Positions 56,901 through 61,588 of a DNA stretch of 64,000 nucleotides are shown piece by piece. Source of the stretch: Escherichia coli (lineage in GTDB: Bacteria; Pseudomonadota; Gammaproteobacteria; Enterobacterales; Enterobacteriaceae); assembly GCF_024223415.1 (NCBI RefSeq), contig NZ_CP100500.1; one strand, written 5' to 3'. Positions within the stretch are counted from its first letter, which is position 1, and the number at the start of each line of letters is the position of its first letter. The position numbers are program-made.

Positions 56901-59900
56901 ACTGATTTGGCGCAGTTTTACCTTCAAACGGCACATTCAGGGTGCGACGGACAAAACTTGCCCCACCATCACAAGCCACCAGCCACTGGGCTTTGACTAT
57001 TTCCCGCTGCCCTTCTGCCGTTTTCAGGTGCAAGGTCACTTCGTCATCTTGCTGACTGAAGGCCTCCAGCTCGCGGGAAAACAAGCAGCGCACATTCGGA
57101 AAACGCGACACCCCTTCCAGCATCACCGCATCGACCTGCGGCTGAATAAAGGCGTTACGGCGCGGCCAGCCAAATTCATCGGTCATTGGCTGAATATCAG
57201 CAAAACAGCGGCCCTTCGGGGTGAGAAAACGCATCGCGTGCCACGGCGTAGTATGCGGCAGAACATTATCGACCAGGCCGACCGACTGCATGGTGCGCAG
57301 CGCCTCGTCATCAATACCAATCGCACGCGGGTAGTCGATCAACTTATCGAGTTTCTCCACCACCAGCACGTCAATGCCCATCTGGCCGAGATAGTTCGCC
57401 ATCATCAGCCCGACCGGACCGGCACCAGCGATCGCCACCTGAACGCTATGGTTAACAGCAGGCTGGATGTCAGGGTGTTGTATTGCCATTTCAGTACCTC
57501 ACGACTCGGACAAAATGCCGTTGCGCGCACAGTACAGCGCAACTTGCTTTGTTAAAAACATGTAAATGATTTTTTATTGTGCGCTCAGTATAGGAAGGGT
57601 GTTTTCGGCTACAATCAAAACATGCCCGAATGTGCACCAGGTGCACAACGTTGTTTTAACTATAGAAATGTCAATTAATATGCAGAACAATGAGCAGACG
57701 GAATACAAAACCGTGCGCGGCTTAACCCGCGGTCTAATGTTATTAAATATGTTAAATAAACTTGACGGCGGTGCCAGCGTCGGGCTGCTGGCGGAACTCA
57801 GCGGCCTGCATCGCACCACTGTGCGGCGACTGCTGGAGACGCTGCAGGAAGAGGGATATGTCCGGCGTAGTCCCTCCGATGATAGTTTTCGTCTGACCAT
57901 CAAAGTGCGGCAATTAAGCGAAGGATTTCGTGACGAACAGTGGATTTCTGCACTGGCGGCCCCACTGCTGGGCGATCTGTTGCGCGAAGTGGTATGGCCG
58001 ACAGATGTGTCCACGCTGGATGTTGATGCAATGGTGGTACGCGAAACCACTCACCGTTTCAGCCGCTTATCCTTTCACCGGGCAATGGTCGGGCGGCGTT
58101 TACCGCTTCTGAAAACCGCCTCGGGCCTGACCTGGTTGGCCTTTTGCCCGGAACAAGAACGCAAGGAATTAATCGAGATGTTAGCCTCCCGCCCCGGTGA
58201 TGACTATCAACTGGCACGAGAACCGTTAAAGCTGCAAGCCATTCTGGCGCGCGCGCGCAAAGAGGGTTACGGACAGAACTACCGCGGCTGGGATCAGGAG
58301 GAGAAGATCGCCTCTATCGCCGTACCGCTGCGCAGTGAACAACGGGTGATTGGCTGTTTGAATCTGGTGTATATGGCGAGCGCAATGACCATCGAACAGG
58401 CAGCGGAAAAGCATCTTCCGGCACTACAACGGGTAGCAAAACAGATCGAAGAAGGGGTTGAATCACAGGCTATTCTGGTAGCCGGACGGCGAAGCGGCGT
58501 GCATTTACGCTAGTTACGCCAATGTGTAATTTGGCCCATTCTCATCGTTATTCGCCCATTTGCCCACATGCACAGTACGGGCTGCACGCTACGCTAATGA
58601 CATCAATACTGTGATGTGGAGCAAATCATGAAAATTACGCAAATTCGTAATGCCACCCAAATTATCCAATACGCTGGCAAAACATTTCTTATCGACCCGT
58701 TACTCGCGCCTAAAGGAAGTTATCCGGGTTTTGCCGGAACGGCACGCGCAGAAATCCGCAATCCAACGGTAGAATTACCGTGCGATTTAACAACGTTACT
58801 CAACGTTGACGCCCTAATCGTGACCCATTTGCATGAAGATCACTGGGACGAAACAGCCTCCCGCGTCGTCCCTAAAGATAAACTGATTTATGTGCAAAAT
58901 GAGCAAGATGCTGAATCACTGAATAAACAAGGATTTACGCATCTTACCGTACTTACCGACGAGACTAAATTTGGCGATATTACTCTGCATAAAACGACAG
59001 GGCAGCACGGCTCCGATCGCACCTATGCCGACCCGGCTATGGCGAAGCGTTTAGGCGCAGCCTGCGGCGTTGTTTTCCAGCACCCGACAGAGAAAACGCT
59101 CTATCTGGCTGGCGATACCCTCTGGCGTGACGACGTCGAGGTTACAATGCTAACTTTCCAACCAGAAGTGGTTGTGTTGAATGCCGGATTTGCGCATGTT
59201 CTGGGGCATGGCGCGATAATTATGGGAGCAGAAGATATTCTCAAAACACATTTTACCCTGCCAGAAGCGCAAATTGTCGCGACCCATATGGAGGCCGTAA
59301 ACCACTGTTTGCTGACGCGTGATGCGCTCAAGGAATACGCCAGAGATAATCAAATTATCGAATTTGTGAACGTACCAGAAGATGGTGAAACGTTGACATT
59401 CTAATTCGGAGATAAAGAGTGTTATGCGCCCGCTAACTGTTGCCATTATCGCCGTTGCCGGTTTTAGTCCTTTTCACCTTTCCGTACCGTTTATCGTATT
59501 TAGCGAAAAAATGGCGGAGAAAAAACACTTTCACGTAATTATCTGCGCTGAAAAGCTGGGAAACGTGGACTCTGCCGATGGGTTTTCCGTAACCGCCACC
59601 CATGACTATACCGCAGTCATCCAGGCGGATATTGTGATAATTCCTTACTGGGGAACCATTACACAAAAACCGCCACAAAAACTGCTGGAAGCCTTAACGA
59701 CCGCACGGGATAACGGCGCACAGATTGTCGGGCTTTGCCTGGGCACGTTTGTGCTCGGCTATGCAGGTTTACTGAAAAATAAGCGTGCCGCCACGCACTG
59801 GGAGTTCGAGCGTGAATTTCAGGCACGTTTTCCACAAACACATCTGGATATTAACGCGTTGTACGTAGACGATGACGGCATTATTACCTCTGCCGGTACT

Positions 59901-61588
59901 GCCGCGGCGCTGGATTGCTGTTTGTATATTGTTCGGCAACATTTTGGCAGCGACTATGCTAACCATATTGCCCGACGGATGGTCGTACCGCCATATCGCA
60001 CTGGCGGTCAGGCGCAGTTTATTGAGCAACCAGTGCCGAAAAATACCCATGATGAACGCATTAATCTCCTGCTGGATTACCTGCGGCAAAACATTGCGCA
60101 ACAGCATGATCTCGACTCGCTGGCGCAGCGAGTAATGATGAGTCGCCGCACATTAACTCGCCATTTTATGAAAGCGACCGGTTCGAGTATCGCCGAATGG
60201 CTTATTACTGAACGCTTACGCCGTAGCCAGGAACTGTTGGGATCCAGTCAATTGCCCGTTGAGCGGATAGCAGCTGAGGTGGGTTTTCTCTCACCTGTGA
60301 CCTGGCGTCAGCATTTTAAATCTCACTTCGGCGTCAGCCCCGCCGAATGGCGCAAAACCTTTCGCGGTATGGCATGATAGCGCCCGGAAGAGAGTCAATT
60401 CAGGGTGGTGAATGTGAAACCAGTAACGCTATACGATGTCGCAGAGTATGCCGGTGTCTCTTATCAGACCGTTTCCCGCGTGGTGAATCAGGCCAGCCAC
60501 GTTTCTGCGAAAACGCGGGAAAAAGTGGAAGCGGCGATGGCGGAGCTGAATTACATTCCCAACCGCGTGGCACAACAACTGGCGGGGAAACAGTCGTTGC
60601 TGATTGGCGTTGCCACCTCCAGTCTGGCCCTGCACGCGCCGTCGCAAATTGTCGCGGCGATTAAATCTCGCGCCGATCAACTGGGTGCCAGCGTGGTGGT
60701 GTCGATGGTAGAACGAAGCGGCGTCGAAGCCTGTAAAGCGGCGGTGCACAATCTTCTCGCGCAACGCGTCAGTGGGCTGATCATTAACTATCCGCTGGAT
60801 GACCAGGATGCCATTGCTGTGGAAGCTGCCTGCGCTAATGTTCCGGCGTTATTTCTTGATGTCTCTGACCAGACTCCCATCAACAGTATTATTTTCTCCC
60901 ATGAAGACGGTACGCGACTGGGCGTGGAGCATCTGGTCGCATTGGGTCACCAGCAAATCGCGCTGTTAGCGGGCCCATTAAGTTCTGTCTCGGCGCGTCT
61001 GCGTCTGGCGGGCTGGCATAAATATCTCACTCGCAATCAAATTCAGCCGATAGCGGAACGGGAGGGCGACTGGAGTGCCATGTCCGGTTTTCAACAAACC
61101 ATGCAAATGCTAAATGAGGGCATCGTTCCCACTGCGATGCTGGTTGCCAACGATCAGATGGCGCTGGGCGCAATGCGCGCCATTACCGAGTCCGGGTTGC
61201 GCGTTGGTGCGGATATCTCGGTAGTGGGATACGACGATACCGAAGACAGCTCGTGTTATATCCCGCCGTTAACCACCATCAAACAGGATTTTCGCCTGCT
61301 GGGGCAAACCAGCGTGGACCGCTTGCTGCAACTCTCTCAGGGCCAGGCGGTGAAGGGCAATCAGCTTTTGCCCGTCTCTCTGGTGAAAAGAAAAACCACC
61401 CTGGCGCCCAAGACGCAAACCGCCTCTCCCCGCGCGTTGGCCGATTCATTAATGCAGCTGGCACGACAAGTTTCCCGACTGGAAAGCGGGCAGTGAGCGC
61501 AACGCAATTAATGTGAGTCAGCTCACTCATTAGGCACCCCAGGCTTTACACTTTATGCGTCCGACTCGTATGTTGTGTGAAATTGTGA

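Follow-up and report, generated by a model that had tools for sequence, protein, structure and literature searches.

Genetic organization of the mhpR–lacI region

The analyzed DNA (hereafter the window) is a 64,000-nt stretch of the Escherichia coli contig NZ_CP100500.1. As summarized in Table 1, two co-oriented genes, both on the plus strand, are located between mhpR and lacI: a saxA-like gene and ovrA. A first-pass annotation of the window had recognized this arrangement, but it placed the start of the first ORF at a GTG (58616). The true start is the ATG at 58628, the one that PGAP annotates in strain AR_0085 (100% identical); moreover, the alignment with SaxA extends from M1 and a GGAG motif is present 7 nt upstream. 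The HxHxDH motif ascribed to the first product was found as HLHEDH at residues 67–72, and Pfam matches (DJ-1_PfpI, 3.9e-12; HTH_18, 3.4e-19; also HTH_AraC) bore out the DJ-1/PfpI and AraC HTH domains assigned to the second.

The flanking genes closely resemble their K-12 counterparts: MhpR is 98.9% identical and LacI differs by 2 aa. The GTG of lacI lies one base past the end (60413) of the interval originally delimited. In K-12 MG1655, mhpR (367587–368420) and lacI (366428–367510) are separated by a gene-free gap of 76 bp and the pair is absent, in agreement with the gap of under 100 bp given in the first-pass annotation. Since 435 complete genomes have the two genes annotated as CDSs and both are under purifying selection (dN/dS 0.04–0.15 overall; 0.09–0.15 for the saxA-like gene and 0.04–0.06 for ovrA), the pair is not an effect of chance ORFs.

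Table 1. Coordinates of genes, relics and regulatory features in the mhpR–lacI region of the window.
Feature	Position	Strand	Basis or remark
Stretch absent in the ~10.6-kb deletion allele	49697..60278		left junction ~49696, right junction 60279
mhpR CDS, left flank of the pair	57680..58513	+	PGAP annotation of AR_0085 mapped to the window; stop TAG 58511-58513
GCCAATG, left microhomology copy, possible left breakpoint of the K-12-type deletion	58518..58524	+	pairs with GCCGAATG at 60342-60349
40-bp operator-like block TTGGCCCATTCTCATCGTTATTCGCCCATTTGCCCACATG, candidate OvrA site/promoter region	58531..58570	+	cross-genus conservation
saxA-like gene (z0443 homolog), SaxA-family MBL-fold protein, 258 aa	58628..59404	+	PDB 6BRM, Pfam
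ovrA (z0442), DJ-1/PfpI + AraC HTH regulator, 317 aa	59424..60377	+	Pfam, PGAP
99-nt ovrA relic of the yaiL/relic/lacI allele (Nissle 1917, FCI5)	60279..60377	+	487 genomes
33-nt ovrA relic (EWRKTFRGMA + stop) of K-12-type genomes, directly after the mhpR stop	60345..60377	+	4465 genomes
lacI -35 hexamer GCGCAA, within Trp-Arg-Lys codons (tGG CGC AAa)	60350..60355	+	exact K-12 sequence match
lacI -10 hexamer CATGAT, over the last Ala codon and TGA stop of ovrA	60373..60378	+	exact K-12 sequence match
ovrA-lacI spacer, 36 nt (lacI start and leader)	60378..60413	+	separates the ovrA stop from the lacI GTG
lacI CDS, GTG start at 60414	60414..61496	+	AR_0085 annotation mapped to the window

Identity of the gene pair with O-island 19

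The pair, whose earlier cataloguing the first-pass annotation had missed, is the already-named O-island 19 (OI-19) of EHEC O157:H7 EDL933, comprising z0443 and z0442/ovrA, the latter a published LEE1 activator. The gene order of EDL933 (mhpR, MBL, GlxA-family regulator, lacI) is that of the window. The two loci differ by 2 aa changes in each of the two proteins, DNA identity with O157:H7 genomes is 98.9%, and in several genomes PGAP gives the gene at this locus the name ovrA.

OI-19 has been described as an 1834-bp island carrying z0442 (ovrA) and z0443 (reviewed in PMC8565820 and PMC10877973). As these reviews summarize the work of Liu et al. 2020 (J Infect Dis 221:820), OvrA binds a motif in the LEE1 promoter and activates ler; in the account given in PMC8565820, deletion of ovrA produces a virulence phenotype and deletion of z0443 none. 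Expression of z0443 in EDL933 is 10-fold RpoS-dependent (PMC2907692). This literature treats OI-19 as an EHEC island, with z0443 as “hypothetical/unidentified” and the signal of OvrA unnamed, whereas the present analysis points to an ancestral locus, a SaxA homolog and an overlap with the lacI promoter. lacI does not appear in the two OI-19 reviews (PMC8565820, PMC10877973), nor do SaxA and isothiocyanate in the 2024 review.

Distribution of the pair and deletion alleles in E. coli

The distribution of the pair was examined in 5426 complete E. coli genomes. The full pair is kept in only 435 (8%) and has gone from approximately 91%. Alignment of the interval with K-12 and other E. coli genomes, as the first-pass annotation had proposed, placed the indel between mhpR and lacI and resolved two deletion alleles. 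The K-12-type deletion (~1.82 kb) was found in 4465 genomes and leaves a 33-nt relic of ovrA. An independent deletion of ~10.6 kb (487 genomes), which creates a yaiL/relic/lacI junction, takes out the mhp cluster in its entirety, together with the saxA-like gene and codons 1–285 of ovrA; PGAP labels the remaining 99 nt as an incomplete GlxA-family pseudogene. Since the 99-nt relic is not derivable from the 33-nt one, at least two deletions must be assumed.

A deletion between the microhomologous GCCAATG and GCCGAATG copies predicts exactly the junction length observed in K-12-type genomes. The 10-nt K-12 junction itself (tgacaccatc) is too diverged for the breakpoints to be reconstructed.

The upstream gene encodes a SaxA-family protein

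Comparison with HMM and structure databases, suggested earlier as a means of narrowing the class of the hydrolase, assigned the enzyme to Lactamase_B_2 (Pfam, 4.6e-11) and to the SaxA family. Its match to crystallized SaxA (PDB 6BRM; 259 aa) is full length, with 54% identity, an E value of 5.6e-88 and a single 1-residue gap. The MBL metal-binding motifs (HxHxDH, His, Asp, His) are complete, and residues H67, H69, D71, H72, H127, D163, H220 and H226 are kept in at least 97% of 67 homologs, 6BRM included. The earlier statement that the enzyme has no obvious substrate thus gives way to isothiocyanates as a candidate. Because the protein is a full-length SaxA homolog, the aldehyde, glyoxal or amide compounds previously proposed are not the best lead. 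The z0443 product is most likely an isothiocyanate hydrolase, which would convert isothiocyanates to amines; at 54% identity its substrate specificity could differ from that of SaxA. Isothiocyanate hydrolase activity is retained even by a fungal SaxA that shares just 20% identity with the P. syringae enzyme (PMC7303113).

OvrA and its association with sax genes

The N-terminal DJ-1/PfpI-like domain and the C-terminal double AraC HTH of OvrA constitute the two-domain architecture of FtrA/GlxA-type AraC regulators. FtrA (NF006902) is its best NCBIfam match, but identity with FtrA itself was rejected, as the score of 322 bits falls short of the equivalog cutoff (425).

The exact 6BRM protein is encoded on plasmid Drgb3 and on many contigs. 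In the Drgb3 and L084 loci, saxA is followed by a gene for a 324-aa DJ-1_PfpI+HTH_18 regulator that is 57% identical to OvrA without gaps. The Drgb3 sax cluster, from Pectobacterium of the cabbage root fly gut (Welte et al. 2016; van den Bosch et al. 2018), therefore shares the same-strand enzyme–regulator order of the window. It differs in also containing isochorismatase, LysO and MFS genes and in lying beside a Tn3 transposase gene, whereas the E. coli copy is chromosomal and consists of the two genes only.

Sax-type genes adjoin 78 of the 80 OvrA-family loci; the neighbor is SaxA-like in 66 of them (64 full-length, 2 truncated) and a SaxB-like isochorismatase in 12 more. We provisionally take OvrA to be SaxC-like and the isochorismatase to be SaxB-like, on the basis of gene content. 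In Pseudomonas, saxC and saxA are clustered, and the OvrA-family loci match in gene content the saxCAB genes of P. syringae (Fan et al. 2011, Science 331:1185), i.e. regulator, MBL hydrolase and a third gene, SaxB. In P. viridiflava the induction of saxA by isothiocyanate is small and saxC itself is uninduced (PMC12903958). Cys105 is invariant in 82 OvrA homologs, including those without an adjoining SaxA gene, and it therefore provides no specific evidence for isothiocyanate sensing.

A conserved operator-like block upstream of the saxA-like gene

The 40-bp block TTGGCCCATTCTCATCGTTATTCGCCCATTTGCCCACATG contains three T(T/C)G(G/C)CCCA repeats, and 58 nt separate its end from the saxA-like ATG downstream. 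It is nearly invariant in 14 Citrobacter loci and can be recognized in the mobile saxA locus as well as in Kluyvera and Erwinia; a similar upstream architecture is present in Aeromonas, Vibrio, Alteromonadaceae and Geomonas. This conservation suggests that the block is most likely the site through which OvrA controls the operon. The published OvrA site of LEE1, GACATTTAATGATAATG, was not found in this region and is unlike the block, so that OvrA either recognizes sites of two dissimilar kinds or has been wrongly assigned to one of them.

The function of the pair may also be read differently. The ancestral origin and the promoter relic described below would stand, but the enzyme would act on a substrate other than isothiocyanates and OvrA would serve virulence or general regulation instead of controlling its neighbor. 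MBL-fold families switch substrate readily, the only NCBIfam hit (“metal-dependent hydrolase”) is sub-threshold (55 bits against a cutoff of 144), the documented OvrA site lies in LEE1, and it is the deletion of ovrA, not that of z0443, for which PMC8565820, as far as its account goes, gives a virulence phenotype. Against this, the SaxA match spans the whole protein with every metal ligand kept, and the same enzyme–regulator pairing occurs at an experimentally characterized saxA. Pairing and upstream block are kept across Gamma- and Betaproteobacteria and Geomonas, mostly without LEE, and besides EHEC the pair is carried by E. coli from baboon, pig, chicken and water (classified by isolation source, not by LEE status). 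We consider this reading unlikely and prefer that of a SaxA-type enzyme with its own regulator.

The lacI promoter coincides with the 3′ end of ovrA

The last codons of ovrA (EWRKTFRGMA and a TGA at 60375-60377) are encoded by gaatggcgcaaaacctttcgcggtatggcatga, and positions 60344-60413 of the window match exactly the 70 bp preceding the lacI GTG in K-12. The start of lacI transcription presumably lies at ~60386, about 28 nt upstream of the GTG, a position carried over from K-12. GCGCAA and CATGAT, separated by a 17-bp spacer, are taken to be the -35 and -10 hexamers of the K-12 assignment (Calos 1978, Nature 274:762, a paper cited in PMC7049694). The earlier claim that the lacI promoter lies within the 3′ end of the regulator gene was thus upheld, with the exact match to the K-12 upstream sequence and the hexamers as assigned there. 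In K-12 this promoter occupies the 76-bp intergenic spacer, whereas in the window the coding region of a live gene takes in its -35 hexamer, its spacer and the greater part of its -10 hexamer. Judged from these sequences, the classic lacI promoter is the leftover 3′ end of ovrA (33 nt).

The C-terminal motif EWRKTFRG is kept in homologs from Citrobacter, Kluyvera and Erwinia, and all of the Citrobacter loci examined have kept TGGCAT(G/C)ATAGCGC upstream of lacI. The C-terminal GMA-stop, the source of CATGAT, occurs in E. coli and C. sedlakii, the two examined lineages in which ovrA lies immediately before lacI. In the Citrobacter freundii complex a gene has been inserted separately between ovrA and lacI; in loci of this kind a degenerate copy of the EWRKTFRG codons still lies directly upstream of lacI. 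That the E. coli deletions and the Citrobacter insertion spared or duplicated this ~70-bp segment would be explained by its being the lacI promoter, and the poor -35 hexamer by its being fixed by the Trp-Arg-Lys codons.

A scan of the 36-nt ovrA–lacI spacer found no terminator-like site; read-through from the saxA-like/ovrA operon therefore probably also reaches lacI. A CRP site at -6 to +22 of lacI has been reported (bioRxiv 10.1101/2025.11.14.688166).

A stronger version of this proposal would make lacI, in pair-carrying strains, mainly the third gene of a saxA-ovrA-lacI transcript, the promoter inside ovrA having become important only after the deletions. The short, terminator-free spacer speaks for it, as does the weakness of the lacI promoter by consensus (a consensus promoter scan of the region did not pick it up); besides, a -35 hexamer fixed by coding constraint needs no promoter function. 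What counts against it is the conservation already described: TGGCAT(G/C)ATAGCGC and the leader persist before lacI throughout the Citrobacter loci, including those in which read-through is unlikely because a convergent gene lies between ovrA and lacI, the GMA-stop giving CATGAT recurs in E. coli and C. sedlakii, and the segment has been preserved through three different rearrangements. The stronger version thus appears distinctly improbable, and we retain a functional promoter within ovrA, with read-through as an additional input.

Origin of OI-19

The order mhpR, MBL, ovrA, lacI, lacZ, lacY is found in C. sedlakii, where ovrA and lacI are separated by the same 36-nt spacer and the 3′ end of ovrA and the lacI leader align at the nucleotide level. 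Thirteen other Citrobacter loci show the same gene order. Amino acid identities between E. coli and Citrobacter (MhpR, 89.8%; SaxA-like, 76.7%; OvrA, 76.7%; LacZ, 79.8%; LacI, 82%; 80–83% for Citrobacter LacI proteins) fit orthology. RMDEC465, a deep lineage of E. coli with a lacI that departs from all others at 58–64 of 1083 nt, has also kept the pair. Full-length ovrA was not found in representative genomes of other Escherichia species, and the case for ancestry therefore rests on Citrobacter, the relics and RMDEC465.

The hallmarks of a genomic island (absence at the outgroup site; mobility genes, repeats or odd composition) were not found: the GC content of the pair is 47.9–50.9%, compared to 52% for the window, and a search around it revealed no flanking repeats and no integrase or transposase genes, only the two ORFs. 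The first-pass annotation had left the choice between a deletion in the K-12 lineage and an insertion in the present strain; the Citrobacter gene order and 36-nt spacer, the 99-nt relic and the EWRKTFRG codons in K-12 support deletion over insertion. Taken together, these comparisons indicate that OI-19 is ancestral, not acquired, and has been repeatedly lost.

That the pair is instead an island which the EHEC lineage gained horizontally at a point between mhpR and lacI, with K-12 as the original state, accords with its cataloguing as an O-island (O-islands being called horizontally acquired in the reviews), its presence in only 8% of complete E. coli genomes, its absence from representatives of other Escherichia species and the mobility of SaxA genes elsewhere (PMC7036374; plasmid matches), but is highly improbable. 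The last 11 codons would have had to coincide with an existing lacI promoter, and the insertion to match C. sedlakii in both its site and its 36-nt spacer. Furthermore, the K-12 promoter encodes the family C-terminal motif in frame, the Nissle-type allele carries 99 nt of ovrA without the remainder, and the chromosomal copy, which has an ordinary GC content and lacks repeats, integrase and transposase, is only 54% identical to mobile SaxA. Acquisition is already contradicted by the relic sequences of K-12-type and Nissle-type genomes.

Discussion

The locus and its regulator have been published, and finding them is in itself no discovery. What the present analysis adds to the OI-19 literature is the probable ancestral origin of the pair, the apparent identity of the lacI promoter with relic coding sequence and the recognition of z0443 as a SaxA homolog.

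These elements may be joined in a single account, which we regard as probable as a whole. An ancestral two-gene operon would have stood in the order shared with Citrobacter (mhpR, saxA-like, ovrA, lacI, lacZ, lacY). Its metallo-hydrolase would detoxify isothiocyanates, electrophilic toxins derived from the glucosinolates of crucifers, to amines. OvrA, in which an AraC-type DNA-binding domain is joined to a DJ-1/PfpI sensor domain with an invariant cysteine, would be the cognate SaxC-like regulator, controlling the operon through the repeat block. The next gene, lacI, would be transcribed from a promoter built from the last codons and stop of ovrA, and read-through may provide an extra input. 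Deletions would then have removed the pair while the lacI promoter segment stayed in place. In LEE-positive strains, activation of LEE1 by OvrA would represent the co-option of an older metabolic regulator.

A bolder extension, which we put forward as speculative and on balance doubtful, is that OvrA is a thiol sensor of dietary isothiocyanates, turned on when these electrophiles attack Cys105 in its DJ-1 domain. In EHEC, crucifer isothiocyanates reaching the gut would then drive detoxification by Z0443, expression of LEE virulence genes and, through read-through, the level of the Lac repressor.

An ancestral and repeatedly lost OI-19 would alter the reading of its role in the evolution of EHEC. 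The textbook lacI promoter is, on this evidence, what remains of the C-terminal end of an AraC-family gene and, if the bolder extension holds, this “constitutive” promoter would be the stump of an inducible operon. The regulation of lacI measured in K-12 may consequently differ in strains in which a live operon reads into lacI. Finally, homology with SaxA and its regulator provides a candidate signal for OvrA and a candidate function for z0443, namely crucifer isothiocyanates, a hypothesis that bears on a pathogen transmitted in food, which cattle carry and which spreads via vegetables.

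Genetic organization of the mhpR–lacI interval

The ORF list of the window contains two ORFs of the same orientation between mhpR and lacI. The presence of this gene pair, reported in the first-pass annotation, was upheld, but the start assigned there to the first ORF (GTG, 58616) was corrected to the downstream ATG, since this is the PGAP start in AR_0085 (100% identical to the window over the interval) and homolog alignments begin at that Met. The first gene product, a hydrolase, matches Pfam Lactamase_B_2 and contains an HLHEDH motif. Within E. coli, the dN/dS values of the hydrolase gene and ovrA are 0.04–0.15, and both genes are under purifying selection.

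Features of the mhpR–lacI interval (window coordinates unless a compared locus is named)
Feature	Position	Remarks
mhpR stop codon	58511–58513	left flank of the pair
Operator-like block	58531–58570	40 bp, three T(T/C)G(G/C)CCCA repeats; upstream of the hydrolase gene
SaxA-like hydrolase gene	start ATG at 58628	258 residues
ovrA	59424–60377	DJ-1/PfpI domain, then AraC-type HTH
Presumed lacI −35 hexamer	60350–60355	GCGCAA
Presumed lacI −10 hexamer	60373–60378	CATGAT; 17-bp spacer to −35
lacI start codon	60414	GTG
251-aa ORF, C. freundii complex	L012 6948–7703	also in L004, L007–L014, L017; lacI upstream copy, L007 7660–7752

A 105-aa ORF starting with ATG (60347–60664) begins within the end of ovrA and crosses the lacI start in a different frame; it lacks support and is probably spurious.

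The locus is OI-19/ovrA, which is already known, and recent PGAP annotation names the second gene "ovrA: OI-19-encoded virulence regulator OvrA". OI-19 of strain EDL933 is a 1834-bp island containing z0442 (ovrA) and z0443; OvrA is an activator of ler that binds to a 17-bp LEE1 promoter motif, z0443 is termed "hypothetical" and shows no virulence phenotype when deleted, and O-islands are referred to in reviews as horizontally acquired (PMC8565820, PMC10877973). In EDL933, z0443 is expressed in a manner that is 10-fold RpoS-dependent (PMC2907692). lacI is absent from both OI-19 reviews (PMC8565820, PMC10877973), and neither SaxA nor isothiocyanate appears in the 2024 one (PMC10877973). The ancestral polarity of the locus, the lacI promoter as a relic and the SaxA/regulator assignment add to the literature found.

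The lacI promoter within the 3′ end of ovrA

The last 33 nt of ovrA (gaatggcgcaaaacctttcgcggtatggcatga) and the 36 nt after them are identical to the lacI upstream sequence of K-12, which bears out the earlier proposal that the lacI promoter lies within the 3′ end of the regulator gene. In K-12, the distance between mhpR and lacI is 76 bp and includes no gene, in agreement with the figure of under 100 bp given in that annotation. The hexamers taken here as those of lacI, whose assignment reportedly goes back to a 1978 paper by Calos that PMC7049694 cites, place the ovrA stop codon (TGA, 60375–60377) inside the −10 hexamer. The promoter would thus be embedded in the final ovrA codons, its poor −35 hexamer being fixed by Trp-Arg-Lys codons and its −10 hexamer produced by the Ala-stop end of the gene, which is common to E. 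coli and C. sedlakii. The literature searched contained no account of the lacI promoter as the remnant of a gene, which does not exclude that one exists. A consensus promoter scan found neither the lacI promoter nor one for the SaxA-like gene, such a scan being uninformative for weak or activator-dependent promoters.

ovrA contains two copies of an 11-mer, CGCCGAATGGC, at a distance of 150 bp (60191–60201 and 60341–60351). The copies encode the (I/P)AEW ends of both AraC helix-turn-helix subdomains, and the second directly precedes the lacI −35 hexamer and overlaps its start.

At the K-12 junction (acgTTGACAcc; L001 2080–2092), the mhpR stop codon and junction nucleotides together make up a perfect TTGACA, which lies 15 bp upstream of the native −35 hexamer. 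A 15-bp deletion giving a consensus −35 is the basis of the lacIQ1 up-mutation; if this description of lacIQ1 holds, the deletion recruits the junction TTGACA.

Evidence for deletion of the pair in E. coli

Among 5426 complete E. coli genomes surveyed, three alleles accounted for 5387: the full pair (435 genomes), the K-12-type mhpR–lacI junction (4465) and a yaiL–relic–lacI junction (487). In the last of these, found in Nissle 1917 and FCI5, the missing stretch (approximately window 49697–60278) takes in the entire mhp cluster and the hydrolase gene and extends 285 codons into ovrA. This allele retains 99 nt of ovrA, annotated by PGAP as an incomplete GlxA-family pseudogene, and cannot have descended from the K-12 allele, in which only 33 nt are left. 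The two relics therefore imply an ancestor with the pair, from which at least two deletions arose independently. The pair is intact in RMDEC465, which has the most divergent E. coli lacI (58–64 of 1083 nt different from the others examined) and probably belongs to a deep or cryptic lineage. The lacZ gene of this strain is annotated as frameshifted.

The first-pass annotation had allowed either a deletion in the K-12 lineage or an insertion in the present genome. The relics in two alleles, the synteny with Citrobacter described below, the segment duplicated in the C. freundii complex, the conserved EWRKTFRG sequence and RMDEC465 all point to deletion of the pair and speak against insertion, so that the main interpretation given there stands in its deletion form, on both the E. 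coli alleles and the Citrobacter comparison. The absence of flanking repeats and mobility genes around the pair, together with its ordinary GC content, argues against its being a mobile element.

A GCC(G)AATG microhomology at 58518–58524 and 60342–60349 predicts the observed length of the K-12 junction. The 10-nt junction varies by strain (tgacaccatc in K-12, taatgccgcc in PK-F-10122) and resembles both flanks about equally, the K-12 breakpoint being approximate. Comparison of PK-F-10122 (L089 1560–1600) with K-12 (L001 2075–2095) showed this short junction to be unusually variable, with TGA, TAA or TAG as the mhpR stop codon. Possible explanations of this variability are an old deletion with relaxed constraint and repeated deletion at the same microhomology. 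The lacI gene of AR_0055 (L092) differs by 8 nt from that of FCI5 (L002), yet AR_0055 has a junction of the K-12 type and its mhp cluster is intact. The two deletion alleles are thus associated with similar lacI sequences, suggesting either recombination or repeated loss.

Comparison with Citrobacter

A scan with one genome per species detected OvrA in no other Escherichia species and in Citrobacter species at 75–80% identity. The gene order in C. sedlakii is mhpR, hydrolase gene, ovrA, lacI, lacZ, lacY; the ovrA–lacI spacer is 36 nt, as in the window, and the end of ovrA and the lacI leader can be aligned at the nucleotide level. The amino acid identities between E. coli and C. sedlakii (MhpR, 89.8%; hydrolase, 76.7%; OvrA, 76.7%; LacZ, 79.8%; LacI, 82%) are of the order expected for orthologs. 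LacI of the window is 80–83% identical to Citrobacter LacI and differs from K-12 LacI by 2 amino acids. EWRKTFRG, still encoded upstream of lacI in K-12, is the conserved OvrA C-terminus of Citrobacter, Kluyvera and Erwinia homologs.

In the C. freundii complex, a convergent ORF (opposite strand, methyltransferase-like) is inserted between ovrA and lacI, and a degenerate duplicate of the final ovrA codons lies directly upstream of lacI, the segment thus being present twice.

The hydrolase is a homolog of SaxA

The hydrolase is homologous over its full length to the crystallized isothiocyanate hydrolase SaxA (PDB 6BRM; E 5.6e-88, 54% identity), and each MBL metal ligand is present in at least 97% of 67 homologs. 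The exact 6BRM sequence is encoded in a mobile sax locus on Drgb3 (a plasmid of Pectobacterium from the cabbage-root-fly gut) and on many other replicons; there, the next gene downstream of the SaxA gene lies on the same strand and encodes a 324-aa DJ-1+AraC regulator, 57% identical to OvrA without gaps. A SaxA-like gene adjoins an ovrA-family gene in 64 of 80 loci; the two are co-oriented in Enterobacterales, Aeromonas, Vibrio and Geomonas, and Betaproteobacteria and Marinobacter have them in divergent orientation. In 12 of the remaining OvrA-family loci, the regulator gene adjoins an isochorismatase-family gene like that of the mobile sax cluster. These neighborhoods also match Pseudomonas saxC/saxA/saxB, a likeness of gene content and not of SaxC alignment, and they support the hydrolase–regulator link.

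Plasmids of E. coli, Salmonella, Klebsiella, Providencia, Pantoea and others encode the crystallized SaxA or proteins 87–99% identical to it (H171–H195); at any identity level, 128 plasmid records matching SaxA are from Escherichia. In the loci examined (L084–L087 and Drgb3; L094 is also listed), mobile saxA belongs to a cluster that is flanked by Tn3 and also contains isochorismatase, LysO and MFS genes. A mobile copy may therefore accompany, or replace, the chromosomal gene in some E. coli. In Betaproteobacteria, Marinobacter and Halomonas, the divergent SaxA-like gene encodes an apparent N-terminal signal peptide (L036, L040, L052, L059, L064, L074, L079), which suggests periplasmic variants of the enzyme.

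OvrA and a putative operator

The 40-bp block is nearly invariant in Citrobacter and recognizable in Kluyvera, Erwinia, the mobile locus, Aeromonas, Vibrio, one Alteromonadaceae genome and Geomonas, as would be expected of an operator footprint of the cognate regulator. The block does not resemble the LEE1 motif published for OvrA, and that motif is absent from the interval. A search of the window for that motif (up to 3 mismatches) gave a single match, inside lacZ and at chance level, which leaves autoregulation through a LEE1-type motif without support.

The closest solved relative of the OvrA N-domain is isonitrile hydratase. Cys105, at the nucleophile elbow (VGLC(L/Y)G), is invariant in 82 homologs; this would fit covalent sensing of an electrophile but is not proof of it and, since the cysteine is family-wide, is weak evidence.

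Proposed model

In the most likely model, the locus is an ancestral operon of the SaxA-like gene followed by ovrA, which would be transcribed from a promoter beside the conserved block under OvrA control and whose enzyme would detoxify isothiocyanates. Since a terminator scan found none between ovrA and lacI, operon transcripts may run on into lacI. The enzyme activity, signal, operator and read-through are put forward as proposals. Deletions removing the operon would be tolerated only where approximately 70 bp for lacI expression were spared; such a need would explain why each rearrangement stops just upstream of the −35 hexamer or retains a copy of the segment. Should OvrA prove to be an isothiocyanate sensor feeding into LEE, the interest of the finding would be more than modest.
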